64,000 bases of DNA from a virus: IMG/VR virus record IMGVR_UViG_3300028800_000002, positions 96,001-160,000 of that record. One strand, written 5' to 3'. Both the position numbers and the translations under genes were made by a program. Positions 1,974 through 58,222 of the stretch are shown here, piece after piece. The notes under the pieces are model-generated. The model ran no database searches. It was not told the DNA's origin and worked only from the letters and a program-made list of their open reading frames with translations. Numbering within the stretch: position 1 is the stretch's first letter; the number at the start of each line of letters is the position of its first letter.

Positions 1974-2618
1974 GTGCCGCTAAATGATGTCGGAAGTTAC
2001 ACTTTGGGCGAGGTCAACATCGCGCTGTTAGCTGGAGTTGGGCTGTTGAATCCGCTGTTGTTGCAGCTGGACTTGTTCATCACTGGGCAGTTTGGATTAG
2101 GCCCTTTCCTAGCGGATATCCAAGTACAGTTCAACGCTGCCATCGCGCTGCAGCTCCAACTTAGCTTCAGTATATCGAGTCCATTCCTTGCAATTCAGGC
2201 CACCATCACAGCGCTGGCTAACCTCCAGGCATCCTTGGCGTTAGCTCTGGCAATGGGGCTCCCTGTGGTGTCGCTGCAGATAAGCGCGCAGATTGCTGCG
2301 ATGGCTTCCTTGCAGGCCACACTTGCATTCAAGCTTGGGGGCATCAGAGCGCTACTGGCCGCGGGCCTAGCAGTGAAGATACCAGCTCTTCGGTTTGTAG
2401 CTCAAATGAATGCTGCATTGTCGGCGGGCCCCGTGCATGTACTGTCATTCACAGGGGATATGCTGGCTGTGACCGGAGCCGAGATTGCGGCGGCCTTTGC
2501 ATCCGGGCTCGGGCCCAATGATCCAATTTTACCGACAGAACAAGTGAGCGGGGTTATCATCCTGACCAAGGACCCTGCTGTTTTTGCCGCCTTGGGCGGT
2601 ATCATCAAAGTCAATTAG
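1974..2618 (+). CDS. Extremely hydrophobic Leu/Ala/Gln-rich putative virion/membrane protein
   Basis: GTG start 2 nt after spike stop; about 105 residues with only two Asp. Confidence 0.7.
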   Translation: MPLNDVGSYTLGEVNIALLAGVGLLNPLLLQLDLFITGQFGLGPFLADIQVQFNAAIALQLQLSFSISSPFLAIQATITALANLQASLALALAMGLPVVSLQISAQIAAMASLQATLAFKLGGIRALLAAGLAVKIPALRFVAQMNAALSAGPVHVLSFTGDMLAVTGAEIAAAFASGLGPNDPILPTEQVSGVIILTKDPAVFAALGGIIKVN

Positions 2619-2628
2619 GAGCCAGCGC

Positions 2629-4788
2629 ATGACCCAGGCACTCTATCTAGTCCCGCAACTTGAGTTCGAAAAGTCTGCTGCGGAGACCGCACTGCCAGAG
2701 GACCCCAACCAGTGGCCTGACGCGGCGCTTCAAGAGCTATACAAGCAGGTCCCCTACTTGGCCGATTTCGATCTGCACGTGAACATGGAGAGTGTGGATG
2801 GAGAGCGTGGTTACGGTCTTGGCCACGTTGAAGTGACCAACAAGACTGAGGCCCCGATGACTTCTCCTCAGGATCAAATGGTTGCCGCGGGCATTCGTAC
2901 TGCACGTATTCCAGTCATCATCAAAGATAGTAAGTTGGCTCCCTTCGATGTCATATTGACCGACGATGCGCGGGCACTTCCGCTTACTGAGAGTCGACTT
3001 CGCCAGGCGATGTTTCGCCCGCAGAACTTCGATGTGACCAGCAAGACCCCTGGTGACCAGTCCATGATTGGGCAGCTCTACCCACCATACCGGCAGAACT
3101 ATGGCTTCGGTGGTGGTGGCGTAGCCACGAGCGCCGGCATGGGTGGAAAGACAGCTGCGAAGCATGCATCCCTTGAGGAGTGGCTGGAGAGTGAGGCAAC
3201 GGTCAAGACTGCTTCGGCTAAGTCGCGTAATCCTCAGCTACATGGCATGCGCATGGCAGCGTTGGACTCAGCGGTTGCCAAAGGTGCAGAGAAGACAGGA
3301 TCCATTTTGGCAGCGGTATTGCCGATGGCCAATGCCTCCGACTTAGCTGACTTCAAGCTGTGCTTGCTGGATACGAACATAAAGCTTGCGTTTGCCTCCA
3401 ATGTGGCAACGCATGATTCACTCATTCTTCTTTCAGAGGCACAGCCGACTCCGCTCGAGAAGCGTGCAGCAGCCATGCTGGATAACTTGGTTGCTAGTGT
3501 GACGCAGATCGTCAAGCTGCATGAAGGGTATGCAGTCAAGACTGCGAGTCACCGTGCCTGGGACCCGCGCGAGATTATTCTCAACCGTGGGGAGTTGGTG
3601 CACCGGTTCGGGCCTAAGATTGCGCTCGCGGCGGATACCTCGGGTGCGGTAACGATGTCCGAGGGTGAGGGGGTTTCTGAGGAGGGTATGGGTGCTCCGG
3701 TTGGGACTGGCGCTGGACCCATTTCGGCCCCCGGTATGTACCAAGTGCAGTCGGTCGAAGGTGAGATGTTGACCGGCGTGGTGATTCCCAACCTGCTCGA
3801 TGTGGATGGGAGCTCTCTGCCCATTGCATTCTTTACCGATGGCTCGCACGCCGCGGTGCAGTCCGATGTCTCGGGAGTTCCCGTGGGTGAGTTTACGGCC
3901 CCTGGGTCAGTCCCCGCGGGACAGGCGAGTGGGCATGGGGTGTTCTTTACCGAGGCGGGAGGTGTGCCATGTGCCACGTTGCCTTTGACGTTGGGCGCCT
4001 CGGTGCAAGGTGCCGGCGTTGATGAGCAGCCGCATTTTCAAGCTGAGACGTTTGACGGGCGCCCGGTGCAGGTCAGCGTTCAGCCATACGTAGCCACCGT
4101 GGTGGGTGTGGACGGGAACATGATTATCCCTGATGGATGGATGTGGATTCCCCTGGACCAGGCCGCTGAGGTTTCTCTCGCTGAATCCCCGATGGAAGTT
4201 GGGAAGACAGCGTCTGTGCAGCGCAAATTGGCGTCAGTGGAAGTGCGCGCGGGCGGCCTCGATTGCTTCTCGCTGCGCGGGTATCCGGTCGAGAAGTTGG
4301 CCTCTGATGAGCGCGAGTTCCTGACCCAGGATCGTGCCCTATTTGTTCTGGTAGGTCTTGGGGCCAATCCAGTCTATGCTCAACAGAAATTGGCATCGGC
4401 ATGCTCCGGCGCCAGTCACGTGGAGACGGTGCGTATCGGGCATCAGTTGAAGCTTGCCTCGGAACTGCGCGGGGAGAGCTACACCGAGGCGCAGAACTTC
4501 CTGGGTGCGATGCCGGTGTTCCGTCACCGCATGTGGAAAGAAGCGGCTACGCTCACCGATCCTGTTGCCGTGGACACAGTCTTGTCTCTCGGCTTCATCA
4601 ACCCCGAGAACATTGCGACATTCGTCGGCTACTTGCCAACGCTTGATGAAGCGCAGCGCCGCCTGTGCGAGATACTCATTGGGTCCAGGCTTGGGCTCAA
4701 AGAAGTCCCTGATGGTTCGACGGAACGCGCGATTCGCGCGCTTGAGGATGTGATCGAGGGTCTCAAGGTTGTGGCGTTTCAGGGCTAA
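2629..4788 (+). CDS. Large putative head-associated protein of unknown function, rich in K-x-A-S/A motifs
   Basis: AGGAG RBS before ATG 2629; 12 K-x-A-[SA] motifs in about 720 aa. Confidence 0.75.
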   Translation: MTQALYLVPQLEFEKSAAETALPEDPNQWPDAALQELYKQVPYLADFDLHVNMESVDGERGYGLGHVEVTNKTEAPMTSPQDQMVAAGIRTARIPVIIKDSKLAPFDVILTDDARALPLTESRLRQAMFRPQNFDVTSKTPGDQSMIGQLYPPYRQNYGFGGGGVATSAGMGGKTAAKHASLEEWLESEATVKTASAKSRNPQLHGMRMAALDSAVAKGAEKTGSILAAVLPMANASDLADFKLCLLDTNIKLAFASNVATHDSLILLSEAQPTPLEKRAAAMLDNLVASVTQIVKLHEGYAVKTASHRAWDPREIILNRGELVHRFGPKIALAADTSGAVTMSEGEGVSEEGMGAPVGTGAGPISAPGMYQVQSVEGEMLTGVVIPNLLDVDGSSLPIAFFTDGSHAAVQSDVSGVPVGEFTAPGSVPAGQASGHGVFFTEAGGVPCATLPLTLGASVQGAGVDEQPHFQAETFDGRPVQVSVQPYVATVVGVDGNMIIPDGWMWIPLDQAAEVSLAESPMEVGKTASVQRKLASVEVRAGGLDCFSLRGYPVEKLASDEREFLTQDRALFVLVGLGANPVYAQQKLASACSGASHVETVRIGHQLKLASELRGESYTEAQNFLGAMPVFRHRMWKEAATLTDPVAVDTVLSLGFINPENIATFVGYLPTLDEAQRRLCEILIGSRLGLKEVPDGSTERAIRALEDVIEGLKVVAFQG

Positions 4789-40171: not shown

Positions 40172-40484
40172 CGTTGTAGATAGACTCAGGGAATTGACGG
40201 AGGCAAACGCGCTGCAGGCGAAAGACATAGAACTAGATCGTCTTCGCACAAACTACGGACTACTGAAGGCACACCAGGATCATGTGCTCAAAGAGTTAGA
40301 GGGTTTGCGTGCGCTTGTCACTAGGTATGAGGGAGAGCTTCGCACGGTCTTGGGATTCATTATGGATAGCAGTGCTGAACTGACCGCTCCTGTAGCTGAT
40401 GTTTTAGCGCTACACGAGGAATTGCGCATTGCGTCCAACGCTGACTATGACGAGTATGGAGTTTCGTGGAAATTCAAAATGTAG
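40155..40484 (+). CDS. Hypothetical coiled-coil protein
   Basis: Heptad pattern; overlaps upstream stop. Confidence 0.65.
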   Translation: MSSSNSVVDRLRELTEANALQAKDIELDRLRTNYGLLKAHQDHVLKELEGLRALVTRYEGELRTVLGFIMDSSAELTAPVADVLALHEELRIASNADYDEYGVSWKFKM

Positions 40485-51092: not shown

Positions 51093-51282
51093 GCGGCGTG
51101 CCCGTCAGATTGCTGGTACCAATGTGCGCGTTGTGCACGAGGCAGGGGCGGGAGGCATGCGTAAGATGCGTTGCCCTGGTACTCATCAGTTAGCGGTACC
51201 GTCGCGGGCTCCTGACGGATCGTCTGTACTCAGAACACCGGGAGGCACTACGTACGTCACCAAGAAATTGGGTCGTACCTAA
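51070..51282 (+). CDS. Small basic hypothetical protein
   Basis: GAGGA RBS before ATG 51070. Confidence 0.55.
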   Translation: MSKLVPGERRARQIAGTNVRVVHEAGAGGMRKMRCPGTHQLAVPSRAPDGSSVLRTPGGTTYVTKKLGRT

Positions 51283-51655
51283 GAACCCACCCAAGCCCAT
51301 CTCGCAGGCGCCCGATGACTTTGAATCCATTGCATAGGTAGAGTTTGAGGGCACCGAGGTTCCCTTGCCGCACGGTGAGCACAATTGGTCTACCTAGGTT
51401 TTGGACTTCACGTAACAGCTCAGATCCGATGCCGCGCCTTTGCTGGTCTGGATGGACACCGAGCCTAAGGATGTCGTAAATCTCCCCGTACCGCACTAGG
51501 ACGTAGGCAATGAGCGCGTGCTGTCTCCATTTACCCCAGCAGAAACCTAATTCGATCTCGCGTGCAAGCGTGGTTTCGTTGAAGCAGTTCTCAGGAAACA
51601 GCAGCATGTCGAGTGCAGCTAATTCATCTGTATCGTCTGAGGTGACTTGTTCCAC
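51257..51655 (-). CDS. GNAT (RimI-like) acetyltransferase
   Basis: ILRLGVHPDQQRRGIGSELL..LTVRQGNLGALKLYLCNGF; GTG 51655 start. Confidence 0.88.
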   Translation of the reverse strand: MEQVTSDDTDELAALDMLLFPENCFNETTLAREIELGFCWGKWRQHALIAYVLVRYGEIYDILRLGVHPDQQRRGIGSELLREVQNLGRPIVLTVRQGNLGALKLYLCNGFKVIGRLRDGLGWVLRYDPISW

Positions 51656-51661
51656 GCCCCG

Positions 51662-51671
51662 TGTTATAGCA
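51662..51671. promoter_or_regulatory. Bidirectional overlapping extended -10 promoter
   Basis: TGTTATAGCA reads TG-T-TATAGC (+, 6 nt to ATG 51677) and TG-C-TATAAC (-, 7 nt to GTG 51655). Confidence 0.55.
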
Positions 51672-51676
51672 GGTAC

Positions 51677-51925
51677 ATGGCGAATGTAGCTGTCATAATC
51701 ACGGAAGAAGATGTGAAAGTACAAGGTTCTAGTACCTTGACGGGTGCAGATCTTGAGGCGGCAGTGGACGCCGACATTGCCAAGTTTGACTCCGCTTTTC
51801 AAACCGAGTTGAAGAATGACCCACTCGTACGGTCTGAAATTGCGATTCTCAAAACCTACCTATTCTGGAAAGCCAATTCGGAGAAGTTCAATGCCCCCCA
51901 AGAGAGTCCTGCAATATCAGTGTGA
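51677..51925 (+). CDS. Hypothetical protein
   Basis: 82 aa, leaderless-type start. Confidence 0.65.
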   Translation: MANVAVIITEEDVKVQGSSTLTGADLEAAVDADIAKFDSAFQTELKNDPLVRSEIAILKTYLFWKANSEKFNAPQESPAISV

Positions 51926-52361
51926 ACGTTGCCCGGCGACTTGGTACCTTTCTGAGGCCGAGGCTGCCAAGGAAAAGCCCTACTCGATTGAAGTGAAAGC
52001 AGACTTTGGGGATGGTAGCGCGCCGATCCAAATGACGTACACGTGCCTGTGCGCAAGCTGCAAGCAGACCGTGGCCACGCTATTGCGACAAGCATCGCGC
52101 ACCTTGCAGAAGATGAGTGCGGTACGAGTAGCTAAGAAAAAGAGCGACGATGCGGGCAAACCGGCGGACAAGGGTTCTCCCTCATCCGCCGATACCGTCC
52201 CAACTAAGTCGTCAGCGACTGCTGACTCATTACCGCCGAAGTCACTGGTCGCCGTGCACCCGGCTCCTCCCGTTGTGACGCTGCCGGCTCCCGCGCATTC
52301 CGGGGCGGCAGCATCCTCTGGCAAGGTGTCTCAAGCAGCTGGCAACCATCCCAGGCAATAA
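51891..52361 (+). CDS. Zinc-finger protein with disordered tail
   Basis: CERC..CASC; GGAG RBS. Confidence 0.65.
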   Translation: MPPKRVLQYQCERCPATWYLSEAEAAKEKPYSIEVKADFGDGSAPIQMTYTCLCASCKQTVATLLRQASRTLQKMSAVRVAKKKSDDAGKPADKGSPSSADTVPTKSSATADSLPPKSLVAVHPAPPVVTLPAPAHSGAAASSGKVSQAAGNHPRQ

Positions 52362-52839
52362 CGAACCTCTTGGCCGTCTTAGCGCGCTCTTCGCCTAATG
52401 CTCCGGCTGGCCAACATATAAATAGTGCATCCCCGGGTTCGAACAGGAAGAGGGTTCTAGAGCAGCCGTCTCCTAGGAACTCGGCGATGCGCTCAGGGGG
52501 TCTCTTTCCTCGAGCCTTAGCGACCATGGTGGTGCCTAACTCCTGATCGAGGCACCTGTCCACAAATACCAGTGCTTTCTTTTCCGCCCTGGCATCAGTG
52601 GCTGGCTGCCTTACTAAACAACGACCAGACGGGGGTGACTTCAACGCAGCTCGATACAGCGTGAAGGTCCCCTTCTGGTCGTCTTGATGTGCCATCAATC
52701 TGGAAATGGACTTCCCAACGGGCAACAAGCGGGTCATTCCGTTTTCAGCAATTTCACCTAGCGGGACTCCAACGCGGCCTGGCTGCGAAACGAGTCTTAC
52801 GCCGGTGCGCACTTCATCAGTGACTTCGAATAACCACAT
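52204..52839 (-). CDS. Hypothetical protein (putative early/middle gene)
   Basis: GGAGGAG RBS before ATG 52839; class-1 promoter upstream; 3' end overlaps the convergent gene. Confidence 0.65.
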   Translation of the reverse strand: MWLFEVTDEVRTGVRLVSQPGRVGVPLGEIAENGMTRLLPVGKSISRLMAHQDDQKGTFTLYRAALKSPPSGRCLVRQPATDARAEKKALVFVDRCLDQELGTTMVAKARGKRPPERIAEFLGDGCSRTLFLFEPGDALFICWPAGALGEERAKTAKRFVIAWDGCQLLETPCQRMLPPRNAREPAASQREEPGARRPVTSAVMSQQSLTT

Positions 52840-52883
52840 GTCTCCTCCATTGTGCAAAGGACCCCACGTCCTTCCACAAGTCT

Positions 52884-52911
52884 CTTATGCCTGGAGATTA
52901 GCGGCTTTTAC
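52884..52911 (-). promoter_or_regulatory. Class-1 bipartite promoter
   Basis: GTAAAAGCCGCTAATCTCCAGGCATAAG. Confidence 0.65.
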
Positions 52912-52913
52912 AG

Positions 52914-53192
52914 TCACCCGGCTAAGCGCGTAGTAGCCCTGAGCGTATTGATTGCATTGGCTAGCGCTTTGATGGCGTACTTGCGCACGTCAGCGACACC
53001 CTCAAATTCTGGGATGTCTCGAATGGTGAGAAGTGCGAGTCGGGCTGATTCAAAGGACGTAACATCCAATCCTCGAAGGGATTGAAACACGTCACCATGT
53101 CCTGCCCGCGCGTACTCGTCACGGCACAAGTCCAGCATTACCTGGGCATTCTCGAGCGCGAAAGGGCTCTCAAAAATGGTTTGCTTGTTCAT
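52914..53192 (-). CDS. Hypothetical helical protein
   Basis: ATG 53192 (alternative 53237); protein-like composition. Confidence 0.6.
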   Translation of the reverse strand: MNKQTIFESPFALENAQVMLDLCRDEYARAGHGDVFQSLRGLDVTSFESARLALLTIRDIPEFEGVADVRKYAIKALANAINTLRATTRLAG

Positions 53193-53353
53193 GGGGGTAC
53201 CTACGGGTTGGGGTTTGTTTGTAGTGTCTATAATCATTTTGAATGAATCTGCAACTACTTCAAGTGAATTCAACGTGGCGTAGTACCGGGTGCCTCATGT
53301 ACGCCATGGATTTTGTAGTTTCCCGTTGGCAATTTGCGAAACGCAATACGGGG

Positions 53354-53392
53354 CTAAGAAAAGACACGCGGTTTGGAAACCGGCATCTTTTC
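53354..53392 (-). terminator. Intrinsic terminator of the minus-strand cassette
   Basis: GAAAAGATGCCGGTT-tcca-AACCG(c)GTGTCTTTTC then TT; pairs fully only on the minus strand (G-U). Confidence 0.65.
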
Positions 53393-53399
53393 GGGTACT

Positions 53400-53690
53400 T
53401 CAGCGCGCTATCCAACGCTTGTTCGCCCACAGCACACCGAGGGCAGCAGTAACGAAAATGGGTACTACCACTGCCGCACGCTTCAATTCATGTAGGACGA
53501 TTCCCTTGAAGGACTCATCCTGGGATAGTCGATGCAGGACTTTGCGAGCCTCCGTCCGCTCATTGCTCCTTGCATTCTCGCCTGTTGTATTGCTCTCGTT
53601 CACTACGACCTCCAATCGTGGCTGGAATCCCAGCCCTGCTTCTTGTTGAATTGCTCTTCTGTCCGCCACGGACATTTCATGAATGTTCAT
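53400..53690 (-). CDS. Small protein with C-terminal transmembrane anchor
   Basis: ATGA coupling to the upstream 39-aa ORF; AAVVVPIFVTAALGVLWA. Confidence 0.7.
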   Translation of the reverse strand: MNIHEMSVADRRAIQQEAGLGFQPRLEVVVNESNTTGENARSNERTEARKVLHRLSQDESFKGIVLHELKRAAVVVPIFVTAALGVLWANKRWIAR

Positions 53691-53806
53691 TGAGATCTTT
53701 GCCCCGCTGCGTAAGCAGCCCTGATGTCTCGAACGCACTTGTTGTGGATTCGAAGTGGGACTTCCAGCAGCATCTTGAAGCCAATAAAGGCCATTCCGAA
53801 CAACAT
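53687..53806 (-). CDS. 39-aa small protein missing from the ORF track
   Basis: MLFGMAFIGFKMLLEVPLRIHNKCVRDIRAAYAAGQRSQ; AGAGGAG RBS, own class-1 promoter, coupled to next gene. Confidence 0.7.
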   Translation of the reverse strand: MLFGMAFIGFKMLLEVPLRIHNKCVRDIRAAYAAGQRSQ

Positions 53807-53826
53807 TGCTGTGCTCCTCTACTGTT

Positions 53827-53854
53827 CTTATCCCCGAGATTACTCGGCAATTAC
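53827..53854 (-). promoter_or_regulatory. Class-1 bipartite promoter
   Basis: GTAATTGCCGAGTAATCTCGGGGATAAG. Confidence 0.7.
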
Positions 53855-54049
53855 ACGTCCAGCATCGGTCAAGAGGAGTGTCGCCATTGCAAGTTGATGC
53901 ACTGTGGCTTGTGCCTCATTGAGCCGCTTTTGCTGCGCACACAACTCGCACAACACGCACCTACTCTGCTTTTTGGATCCTTGACAATCAGCGTGCTTTT
54001 CCGAGTACAATTTGCCGAAGCACGCCGGGACACTCTCTTTTTGGCACAT
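53840..54049 (-). CDS. Small Cys-rich (metal-binding) protein
   Basis: CFGK..DC..RCVLCELC; GAGGA RBS; class-1 promoter. Confidence 0.7.
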   Translation of the reverse strand: MCQKESVPACFGKLYSEKHADCQGSKKQSRCVLCELCAQQKRLNEAQATVHQLAMATLLLTDAGRVIAE

Positions 54050-54068
54050 TTATGTATCCTCTAGTCCT

Positions 54069-54096
54069 CTTATTCCCATCGGCCTACGGAATTTGC
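54069..54096 (-). promoter_or_regulatory. Class-1 bipartite promoter
   Basis: GCAAATTCCGTAGGCCGATGGGAATAAG. Confidence 0.7.
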
Positions 54097-54110
54097 GGGA
54101 TTTATGAGCT

Positions 54111-54130
54111 AAAAAGAAGGCCTTCTTTTT
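54111..54130. terminator. Perfect 20-bp palindrome; candidate bidirectional terminator or operator
   Basis: AAAAAGAAGGCCTTCTTTTT is its own reverse complement. Confidence 0.5.
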
Positions 54131-54285
54131 CGCATAATGGCGCCCCGCCAGCGATATCCCTAGACACCTTGGATATCGTCAGCGGGGCCCGTGGGGACTG
54201 TGACTCCTCTTGCCAAAGGGAGAGTCAAGGCACTGGCCAAGTAGAAGGAGGATGCTCTACGGAGGAGAGCTGTCCAGTACCATCA
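54111..54285 (-). ncRNA. Predicted structured small RNA (about 170 nt)
   Basis: Class-1 promoter upstream, palindrome/U-tract downstream, no RBS-led ORF, four stems, two of which pair better on the minus strand. Confidence 0.45.
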
Positions 54286-54290
54286 CTATT

Positions 54291-54318
54291 CTTATACCCG
54301 GCTTCTCCGCGCTTTTGC
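54291..54318 (-). promoter_or_regulatory. Class-1 bipartite promoter
   Basis: GCAAAAGCGCGGAGAAGCCGGGTATAAG. Confidence 0.65.
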
Positions 54319-54336
54319 ATGCCCTTTAGGTGGGGA

Positions 54337-54345
54337 TGTTACGCT
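54337..54345 (+). promoter_or_regulatory. Class-2 extended -10 (leaderless) promoter
   Basis: TG-T-TACGCT, 6 nt, GTG 54352. Confidence 0.5.
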
Positions 54346-54351
54346 TAGCTG

Positions 54352-57300
54352 GTGCCACTCAACAGCTCACAAATTGCGCAGCTCAACGACAGTTTTCAGC
54401 AACAGTACTTGACGCAGCAGCGCATCTCCTCTGGCATCCAACCACAAGGCTACAACTTTGGAGGGATGAACACTGGAGCTCAGAACGAGGGTATGGCTGG
54501 TCGCGCCCTCAACACAGCTACCGCCATCGGAATCCCGGCAGCCACATTGGGCATGGGACTTATGGGGTTGGACCCGATCTCGATGGGGATTAGATCGGGC
54601 ATGGCCGCCGGAAGCATGGGAGGCATGGGCGCTGGACTCGCGGTTGGTGCCGGTGTCGCAGGCATGGGCATGCTCGGTGTGGGTGCTGTCGGTTACATGG
54701 GCAATCAGATGATGCATGGCGCCCAGCAGACGCAGCAGTTCAACCAAGGCATGCGCTCGAGCTTCTCGTTCGCTAATCCCTATGGGCAGCACGGTCGCGG
54801 GTTTGCCGAGAGTGACATTCGAGAAATCGGCGGATCCATGCGCGGCATGGCTGGCGGACAGTCTGGTGGGCAATTCGGTGGCACCATGGATCAGTTCCAG
54901 TTGGGGCCAAGCTTTGCTGAGCTCGGGCGCTTGGCGGCAAACATGGGTCGAATGGGGCTCGCCGACGGCGTGCGTAACGCCAAGGAGTTCACCGAGAAGT
55001 TCCGGGAGATGATGAAGTCGGTCAAGTCCATCGCCGAGGACATGGGCTCTACCCTCGAGGAAGCTCAAAAGACGATGGCTTCGATGAAGGGCTCAGGCAT
55101 CTTCAAGAACCAAACTAGTGTGAGCCACGCCATTCGTGGGGCTTCTGTTGGTGGAAACTTGGCCACCACTGAGGTCACAGGAATGATGAACATCGGCTCA
55201 CAGATCAGTCGCATGTACGGGGGAACGGGGCGCCAAGGGGCCATGGGTGGGATCAAGGCCATAGAAAACGTTGGTGCCGCAATTCAGACGGGGGTTTTGA
55301 GTGAGGAGGACATATACCAGGCAACAGGGCTGACCGGTGCCGAAGGCCGGCAGGCGATGGCGCAGCAAGGGCTCATTAGAACAGGCTCTTTTTTGAAGTC
55401 ATCAAAAGGTCGCTGGCTTGTGGCGTCTCTAGCGGGGCGTGACGGCAAGCTCGATGCTAGCTCCGTGGCCGACTTCATGTCGGGCGGCATGGGTGTAGAC
55501 GACACTCGCGGTGCGGCGCACCGAAACCTGCAAGGGGTAGGCCGTGCGAACTTCATTCGAAACGAAGGGCGCTTGCGCGGAGCGGTGATGGAGCAGTTTG
55601 GCGACATGGCACCTGCAATGGCCATGATTGGCTGGGCGCAGAAGAAGGGCATCGACATCAACTCGATGGGTGATCGAGAGATGCTGTTCATGCAACGTCA
55701 GATGGGGCTTGGCCGAGATGAAGCGGATGACTTGGTGAAGCGTGCGCGGGCCATGCCGCAGCTCATGGAGCATTTGCGTGAAGCCAAGTCTGAGGATAAG
55801 TTCTCAGTTGAGCATGGGCTGCGCGCGCAGGATTCTGGCATTGAAGGTATCAAGCGGAAGCTCGAGGCGGCTCGTGACCAAGTCAACAACAGCATGCAGA
55901 AGGTTGGTCAAGACATCCTCAACTCAACGACGGACATGGTTACTGAGTGGGCCAATAGGTTGACGGGAGTGTACGAAGAGCGGCAGATTGAGGTGCAAGA
56001 CATCAAGAAGTCTTTGCTCTTGGGAGGTTCCGCAGGGAAGTCTGCTGTTTCTATGTTGACGGGAGGCAACCTCGGGAAGCCTCTCGGCGGTGGTGGGCCC
56101 CATGAAGACATCGGGCAGCGTGCGCTCGTGAGCAAGATGCAGGGATACCAATTCGCCACCCGCATGGCTGATTCGAGATCCTTGAGCGCAGAGGCTGGCA
56201 GCCTAGTGGATTCCAAGCAGTCGAAGATTCTTGAGGTATACGCGAACGGTGCAGCCTCTGCTAGGGGCGAAGATCGACTGCACCAATTGAAGGAGGCGTT
56301 CAAAGACGATCTCGAGATGTCCATGTTCCTACGCCAGGGCAAGCATGACGACCAATTGGTTCGAGTTCAGCAAATGGAATCTCGAGTAAAGCTCCCGGCA
56401 GAGATGAGGCTCAGCGAGTCTTTTGACATACCCAAGCTTCCCGAACTTGTGGGAGGTGGGGATGAGCATTCGAATGCCCGCGCCAGAGAGAAGCTTGGGC
56501 ATGGCCTATTGGCTACGTCGACAGCGGATGAGCGCATGGCTCAGGCGGCCAAGCGTAGTTCTGCAATCGCCATGGCCGGTGGCGGCATGGCCTCTGGGAT
56601 GACCCCTGGTGGCGCGGGTATTGGTGAATGGATCGCAGACAAGTTCTTCAACAGGGCAAGTGATGCGCAAGCACAAGTGGCTGGCGCTCTGTTCGATAAA
56701 TCTGAGACTCGCGAGTTGGCCTTCGGAGTCTTGACCGGCGGAGAAGGGGCTAACGATAGGATTAGCAGACGCCTCATTGACTTATCAGGCAAGACGGATG
56801 ACGCATCTGTCGGCGAATCAGGATCTCTTCGCGCAATACAGCATGCGAGTTCCGTAATGGGGATTGCGCGAGAGCGAGGAGGCGTCAACAAGTTGACGGA
56901 TGCGGATTGGGAGCAATTAGCCAAGAAGTCCAATATGTCGGTGGACTCCATGAAGTCTCAATTCAATACTGTGCGCGGCGGCGCGGCTCAGTGGCAAAAG
57001 GAAGCACAACAGAAAATCGCTGAGCAGATTACGCGCACAACCCGTGACGAGGGAGAGTTCATTCAGGCTGGTGGTATTGCCAACTACAAGAATGGCGTGT
57101 TCAGCTTGACTGACACCTCGGAGAAGGCACTGATGAAGAAGGGCGGGAAGAGCGCGGTGCAGGCCGCCCGCCTTGCCATGGCAGCGCAATCGGCCGCAGC
57201 GCACCTTGGGCCAGATGGTGACGGAATCTCTGCTATGGAGGCGGCTAATAGTGACTTCATGAAGGCCATGTCCGGCCTGAGCACAAGCGAGATGAAGGCA

Positions 57301-58094: not shown

Positions 58095-58188
58095 CAACAC
58101 TGAGCTAAGTTTGGGGCACGACCCCGTCGGGCCGTGCTGTGCGCCATTTAGCTTCATGCAGCCCGTCAGCTTACTTATGTGCTCCCAT
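58095..58188 (-). ncRNA. Predicted small hairpin RNA
   Basis: Class-1 promoter upstream; GCACGGCCC-gacg-GGGTCGTGC 9-bp stem inside a TGA(A)GCTAA/TTAGCTCA stem; G-U on minus, A-C mismatch on plus. Confidence 0.4.
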
Positions 58189-58194
58189 GTGAAT

Positions 58195-58222
58195 CTTATC
58201 CCAGGACAACTGGGAAAATTTC
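58195..58222 (-). promoter_or_regulatory. Class-1 bipartite promoter
   Basis: GAAATTTTCCCAGTTGTCCTGGGATAAG. Confidence 0.65.

Follow-up and report, generated by a model that had tools for sequence, protein, structure and literature searches.

Several regulatory RNAs are known to act at the Shine-Dalgarno (SD) sequence, and in RsaE/RoxS, in the loops of RNAIII and in the actinobacterial 6C RNA it is unpaired C/U-rich motifs that pair with the G-rich SD regions of several mRNAs. Phage T4 acts on such sites with a protein, the RegB endoribonuclease, which cuts GGAG in the SDs of the phage's own early mRNAs. For large phages of lytic type, few small RNAs (sRNAs) have been described, and in the literature that we searched, one review included, we found no phage sRNA with a generic and invariant anti-SD sequence. 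A structured phage sRNA has been described in P1 and P7, the c4 RNA, whose exposed segments block translation by base pairing around a ribosome-binding site (PMC12197685).

The locus described here lies in a virus record of IMG/VR (186,443 bp, with direct terminal repeats), of which a window of 64,000 nucleotides (bases 96001-160000) was analyzed; positions are those of the window unless a genome or contig is named. Between positions 54050 and 54350 the codon-usage score is negative for every ORF, leaving a gap without credible coding potential. On one side the gap is bordered by a 69-aa Cys-rich ORF (53840-54049, minus strand), which closes a block of small minus-strand genes, and on the other by a plus-strand gene with a GTG start at 54352 that encodes a 1153-aa Gly/Met-rich protein. 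Judged by its homologues, the element within the gap is a new family of structured and conserved non-coding RNA; its predicted product is a minus-strand sRNA of about 175 nt, which appears to be of an SD-masking kind. An earlier note on this DNA had proposed a small RNA of about 170 nt, transcribed on the minus strand from a class-1 promoter, and comparison of homologues supports such a discrete non-coding gene; the stems, the CCUCCGU loop, the unpaired AUCCUCCUUCU, the palindrome and the promoter on which that proposal was built were all confirmed, at the coordinates given below.

Searching IMG/VR with the 1153-aa protein yielded the genomes of five related phages, 187-195 kb in size, and a DNA pattern derived from the element yielded four more distinct metagenome copies. 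From nine copies we built a covariance model, and it recovered a tenth, L048, with a score of 74 bits, which the pattern searches had missed. The family has ten distinct members, all from related uncultured phages of 186-195 kb, and the sRNA is single-copy in the genome described here. Other candidates were set aside: nine matches from a pattern scan of GTDB genomes and five of the eight from the first IMG/VR pattern scan are chance matches in coding DNA, and the one additional match obtained with a looser IMG/VR pattern, L085, is rejected by the covariance model. Comparison of the whole window with Rfam 15 at gathering scores gave no matches, and a blastn search of GenBank phages with positions 53000-55500 matched nothing. 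A conserved ORF in the sense of the RNA was sought across the members and none was found. Small plus-strand ORFs (for example, 54210-54329) were discarded as genes because their start codon and frame shift between relatives.

Three helices, P1, P2 and P3, are kept in all ten members, and their positions are given here for the minus strand. P1 (54274-54281 with 54229-54236) has eight pairs, six of which are changed on both sides, with 95% of cells paired, and it encloses a variable hairpin, P1a, together with the anti-SD stretch. P1a (GCUCU/AGAGC; 54254-54258 with 54266-54270) sits between the 5′ strand of P1 and the anti-SD, and has the loop CCUCCGU at 54259-54265; there is a CU-rich loop or arm at this position in every member, and the hairpin varies in both length and sequence. 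P2 (54219-54226 with 54202-54209, loop 54210-54218), whose outer part consists of 54201-54206 with 54222-54227, also has eight pairs, six with double changes. The long hairpin P3 (54171-54187 with 54143-54159, loop 54160-54170) contains compensatory changes as well, as in CCCCGC/GCGGGG and CCUCAC/GUGAGG of this phage and G001, and is followed by a conserved 3′ tail, YGCC, at 54139-54142. In Rfam, at E up to 10, the region 53700-54400 matches ybhL alone, at 17 bits (threshold 50) and on the plus strand over P3.

Covariation across relatives is found in these three helices. In the model-based alignment of the ten members standard pairs fill 87% of the cells, compared to 72.8% when shuffled, and double changes are present in 21 of the 31 pairs, compared to a shuffled mean of 10.2 (0 of 500 shuffles reach 21) and to 6-8 when the partner columns are slid. 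Unconstrained RNAalifold recovers both P1 and P2. On imperfect alignments RNAalifold preferred to pair a CCCCAC linker with the 3′ arm of P3, a pairing that we rejected since the compensatory changes in this phage and G001 track the 5′ arm of P3. We regard this comparative evidence, the compensatory changes in ten homologues, as decisive for a real RNA gene.

A class-1 promoter is located directly before the RNA in all ten homologues. In this phage it extends over 54290-54319 on the minus strand, with a -35-like TGCAAA at 54314-54319, a 17-nt spacer, and GGGTATAAGA at 54290-54299, within which the -10 is TATAAG (54291-54296); the predicted transcript start at about 54284 (54283-54285) is at the foot of P1. 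The class-1 motif is centered on GGGNATAAGA, which is present in the genome in 11 minus-strand copies and no plus-strand copies, with 0.7 expected, and downstream of eight of the 11 copies there is an SD with a start codon. An xxCAAA/TGAAA word is located 17 nt upstream of GGGNATAAGA, and usually (U)AGAAGGAGG and a start codon lie within about 5 nt downstream. The same one-strand bias of GGGNATAAGA is seen in the relatives.

The earlier note had also raised the alternative that it is the plus strand that is transcribed, giving a GGA-motif RNA that sequesters CsrA/RsmA, and a plus-strand transcript might equally be the 5′ UTR of the 1153-aa gene. There are about seven GGA words on the plus strand, with one in a loop (ACGGAGG), and in folding the plus strand is no worse than the minus strand (-76.8 kcal/mol, with z of -3.5 relative to shuffles for plus and -2.5 for minus). 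Because both strands fold better than shuffles, folding energy alone decides nothing; across nine members the folding energies of the minus and plus strands likewise do not discriminate, and the G.U counts in whole minimum free energy structures are equal (36 vs 36). Whole-molecule counts being uninformative, only counts within the conserved helices inform on the strand, and here a strand-neutral rule (G.U and A.C treated alike, helix ends trimmed) gives 25 G.U to 9 A.C, with 34 to 7 in the model alignment, which itself leans to the modelled (minus) strand. At the third pair of P1, for example, four members have U.G, two have U-A and four have C-G, and the U.G would be a C.A mismatch if the plus strand were transcribed. 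The wobble asymmetry together with the promoter favours the minus strand. CsrB/RsmZ-type RNAs have many GGA loops on the transcribed strand, and few of the seven or so GGA words here are in loops.

A conserved plus-strand promoter upstream of the element is also lacking. At 53981-54011 the plus strand does have TTGACA-19 nt-TACAAT, close to the consensus of a sigma-70-type promoter, within the minus-strand 69-aa gene and aimed at the sRNA region, but it is not kept in relatives, the closest of them included, and transcripts from it would meet the bidirectional terminator at 54111-54130. The 1153-aa gene has an extended -10 of its own, TGTTACGCT (54337-54345), followed after 6 nt by the GTG, with no SD; this geometry, which G002 keeps in the form TGCTACGCT-6-ATG, fits a putative leaderless mRNA. 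It and the sRNA promoter face away from each other across about 20 nt, and since this extended -10 is beyond the element, the element is not the 5′ UTR of the 1153-aa gene. In L048, moreover, a Cys-rich HNH/homing-endonuclease-like gene (2425-2955, minus strand) with its own class-1 promoter lies between the sRNA and the large gene, and the sRNA promoter overlaps the end of this inserted gene. The helix wobbles, the lack of a conserved plus promoter and the position of the downstream gene's -10 leave the plus-strand explanation disfavoured, and we consider it exceedingly improbable.

The 3′ end of the RNA is less clearly marked than its start. In this phage the palindrome AAAAAGAAGGCCTTCTTTTT occupies 54111-54130, and a probable minus-strand terminator (54105-54130) consists of the palindromic hairpin AAAAAGAAGGCCUUCUUUUU followed by AGCUCA, with a folding energy of -7.3 kcal/mol; a hairpin-U5-AGC end near 54110 gives an RNA of about 173-177 nt. 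This phage alone among the ten members has a clean hairpin and U5 terminator, and the other nine have a weak hairpin without a U-run and keep a YUUAGCY word 6-35 nt after P3. As a clear terminator is present in one member only, the 3′ end is inferred and is less secure than the other features. The hairpin, U-tract and UAGC(U/C)(C/A) recur at many terminator-like sites of the genome (for example, G000 positions 40358 on the plus strand and 63115, 41211, 15524 and 173562 on the minus strand), and a U-tract with UAGC after strong hairpins is found at 15% vs 5% of sites in this genome, with relatives not clearly enriched. YUUAGCY, which comes after the sRNA in all ten members, those lacking a hairpin or U-run included, could be a termination or processing signal that is specific to these phages.

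The weak terminators in nine of the ten members raise the question of whether the sRNA is instead the 5′ part of a longer transcript, as a cis-acting leader that controls the downstream gene or as a precursor cut from it, as with c4-icd-ant of P1, where c4 is processed from the transcript that carries its target. Four members, those of G003 type, have a conserved Cys-containing ORF of 136-146 aa (CxxCG...Y.V.N.VW.AAWP...LCxxCLExRLGR; L070 2503-2940 in G003, and at the same place in L051, L054 and L072) that begins 38-41 nt past P3 at UAGCC-AUG, with neither a class-1 promoter nor an SD between it and the sRNA. A cis role is possible since in these four relatives the sRNA runs into a conserved ORF without promoter or SD, and the arrangement suggests that the G003-type sRNA is a leader, or that it is cut at UAGC, leaving a near-leaderless mRNA. 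The class-1 promoter and SD that come next are contained in the last codons of the 136-146-aa ORF (GDKKDEGG-stop).

A further point in favour of a cis role is that the other members share a conserved gene downstream of the sRNA, which encodes a small membrane protein of 36-39 aa (53687-53806, minus strand; L048 2086-2196; also in relatives). Its product has an N-terminal hydrophobic helix followed by a basic tail, HNxFMxxYRxAQxEGRL (motif HNxFMxxYR), and the gene, likely to be overlooked by default ORF calling, is preceded by a class-1 promoter of its own and is more constant than any other neighbour downstream of the sRNA. In six of the ten members a full class-1 promoter with an SD of its own separates the sRNA from the next gene, an organization that argues against a leader, as do the clean hairpin-U5 terminator of this phage and the limited complementarity of 7-10 nt to the neighbour's TIR, which is at the SD itself. 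We consider a cis-acting leader or processed precursor to be unlikely.

The reading that we prefer, a trans-acting RNA, draws on the sequences that the three helices leave exposed. The anti-SD stretch AUCCUCCUUCU (54243-54253, minus strand; the reverse complement of the plus strand) has the core CCUCCU, which is invariant in all ten members within an otherwise variable segment, and CCUCCU(UCU) sits immediately 5′ of the 3′ strand of P1. Its mean unpaired probability is 0.76 in this phage and 0.48-0.85 over the nine members tested, compared to about 0.36 for the whole RNA, so that the anti-SD does appear to be on display in unpaired regions, as the earlier note had claimed. We take CCUCCU to be the universal anti-SD core, which together with its flanks (CCUCCUUCU) would resemble the canonical 16S 3′ tail. 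Two further motifs are strongly conserved: the 9-nt loop of P2, CUUYGGCAA (54210-54218), which is invariant except for Y, and the linker CCCCAC (54191-54196, minus strand), which is invariant in all ten members and has an unpaired probability of 0.93 here. All three of CCUCCUUCU, the CUUYGGCAA loop and the CCCCAC linker are predicted to be open, and pairing to an SD leaves both CUUYGGCAA and CCCCAC unexplained.

Three invariant single-stranded motifs exceed the needs of SD pairing, and they would be accommodated if the sRNA were a protein-binding decoy, in which a hairpin and a pyrimidine tract like the 16S tail act together with the CUUYGGCAA loop and CCCCAC to titrate a host or phage protein; S1, a nuclease, an RNA-binding protein of the phage and a factor that recognizes the 16S 3′ end are candidates. 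GUGGGG/CCCCAC words, furthermore, recur both within the sRNA and in a conserved 5′-UTR hairpin two genes off. In all four complete genomes a class-1 mRNA, that of a 217-aa gene (52204-52857), opens with the latter hairpin (52857-52895, minus strand, with the stem and loop at about 52860-52880; also at G001 160420, G002 109220 and G003 87906), and the SD comes after it. The top of the hairpin (GAC-GUGGG-GUC) is invariant, and covariation is seen in the lower stem (AAGGAC/GUCCUU, GGAGAC/GUCUUC, AAGCGGAC/GUCUGCUU and GCACAGAC/GUCUGUGC). The GUGGG(G) loop is complementary to the sRNA linker CCCCAC, and the two could make a kissing contact of 6-8 bp, although with both partners invariant this contact cannot be tested by covariation; the hairpin could serve in such a contact or could, like a nut site, bind a protein. 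Known binders of the 16S 3′ end read the GAUCA word of the 16S tail, but this word is not conserved in the sRNA. No partner protein came to light either, and comparison of the proteins around the sRNA with Pfam and PHROGs named no family other than a GNAT at 51257-51802. We regard the decoy explanation as rather unlikely.

Since the exposed stretch copies the sequence with which the ribosome docks on mRNA, the sRNA probably masks ribosome-binding sites, and we put at even chances the proposal that this conserved and structured gene encodes a trans-acting, base-pairing sRNA that occludes SD sites. The element has several attributes of trans-acting C-rich sRNAs, with a promoter, no conserved ORF, a conserved structure and an unpaired pyrimidine-rich seed, together with a terminator that is clear only in this phage. 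Transcription of the sRNA would begin at the class-1 promoter (~54284) and stop near the hairpin-U5-AGC (~54110), with P1, P2 and P3 serving to hold CCUCCUUCU, CUUYGGCAA and CCCCAC exposed. The anti-SD stretch would then pair with purine-rich ribosome-binding sites in competition with the 30S subunit, and so lower or re-time translation. The best-fitting mRNAs would be the phage's own class-1 transcripts, which are predicted to begin almost directly with UAGAAGGAGG; host mRNAs with a strong SD may possibly be affected too, and leaderless class-2 phage mRNAs would be unaffected.

The fit to the class-1 transcripts, of which the leader AGUAGAAGGAGAAUGCCAUG at genome position 18271 is an example, is close. 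The UAGAAGGAGG of class-1 genes is the best complement to the sRNA in the whole genome, and perfect matches of 10-11 nt to the sRNA are present at class-1 TIRs (AGUAGAAGGAG, AGAAGGAGGA, UAGAAGGAGG and GUAGAAGGAG). The duplexes between seed and TIR have energies of -11 to -23 kcal/mol, the strongest being at -18 to -23 kcal/mol, and the canonical 16S tail pairs more weakly with the same sites, a comparison to be read with the caution that the host's real tail may differ. Longer specific matches to the sRNA were sought in four genomes and none was found, and in a 4 x 4 test among the four genomes the cognate sets of seed and TIR pair no better than non-cognate ones. The class-1 fit would seem to reflect generic complementarity at the level of the SD and is no proof of specific targets; as no specific target co-evolves, the mechanism is one that we infer. 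A target ranking by full-length duplexfold, in which the leader with the GUGGGG hairpin came first in three of the four genomes, was set aside because its duplexes are unrealistically long. We also note that the sRNA and its best-matched targets share a promoter class, such that a simple early-to-late switch is not obvious.

A broader role was envisaged in the earlier note, that of a sponge that dampens SD-led translation and spares leaderless phage mRNAs. In its global form an abundant sRNA would titrate the SDs of the host and shift ribosomes to leaderless late mRNAs of the phage. The anti-SD is indeed generic, with the universal CCUCC core and flanks like those of the 16S tail, and a leaderless-type class does exist: TGnTAnnnT is present 4-9 nt before the start codon in 12 of 153 plus-strand genes, compared to 0 of 135 controls, and this extended -10 class includes the neighbouring 1153-aa gene. 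The part of the proposal that does not hold is the escape of phage mRNAs in general, because about a third of the phage genes have an SD of at least 5 nt and the class-1 genes, all of them SD-led, have the strongest SDs of the genome. Such SD-led phage genes match the sRNA best and would be affected first. To titrate all cellular SDs the sRNA would, in addition, have to be about as abundant as rRNA, a level to which nothing points; nor can the sRNA block the ribosome itself, since its polarity is that of the 16S tail. A global sponge is therefore quite improbable in our view, and we assign the same low probability to a form in which a bulk copy of the 16S tail would mask both host SDs and the phage's own accessory class-1 SDs, freeing ribosomes for leaderless class-2 mRNAs.

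The phages that carry the sRNA use two promoter classes, one SD-led and the other of leaderless type. If the sRNA discriminates between SD-led and leaderless mRNAs it would offer a simple RNA-based means of taking over or timing translation, and if the reading as a bulk copy is true, initiation would be switched between its SD-dependent and leaderless modes by RNA alone. Even as an ordinary regulator it would represent a well-defined new RNA family and a candidate for Rfam.

The window contains a further candidate for a small RNA. On the minus strand, GGGATAAGA (~58200) is a second class-1 promoter, which drives about 90 nt without a credible ORF (58095-58205), ending in the hairpin GCACGGCCCGACGGGGUCGUGC followed by CCCAAACUUAGCUC. 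Its promoter and transcript start are kept in G001 (165711), and it is probably another small RNA.

Among the known systems, the P1/P7 c4 RNA and the sRNAs with C-rich loops would be the nearest to the SD-occluding sRNA in mode of action, and by sequence and structure it appears to be none of these. Like c4 (Rfam C4, RF01695), it is a phage sRNA encoded just upstream of small genes on the same strand, but it has three helices and gives no Rfam match at E up to 10, and in most members the next gene's own promoter intervenes. Whereas c4 pairs by two specific contacts between loop and target, the sRNA here has only a generic anti-SD; its complementarity to downstream TIRs is 7-10 nt, at the level of an SD, and a second specific site flanking the ribosome-binding site, as in c4, was not found. 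The sRNAs with C-rich loops (RsaE/RoxS, RNAIII and 6C) are cellular and from Gram-positive bacteria and use UCCC/CCCC, whereas this sRNA is phage-encoded, has no similarity to them in sequence or in Rfam, and contains a longer copy of the 16S tail, CCUCCUUCU. There is a likeness to type I toxin-antitoxin systems as well, in that the sRNA gene adjoins a gene for a small hydrophobic protein (36-39 aa) whose SD it could mask, but the two genes are in tandem rather than antisense or divergent, and the complementarity to the neighbour's mRNA is 7-10 nt at the SD, compared to the approximately 18 nt or more of a type I antitoxin. The resemblance to T4 RegB is one of functional analogy only: there a protein cuts the SD, whereas the sRNA described here would mask it by pairing.
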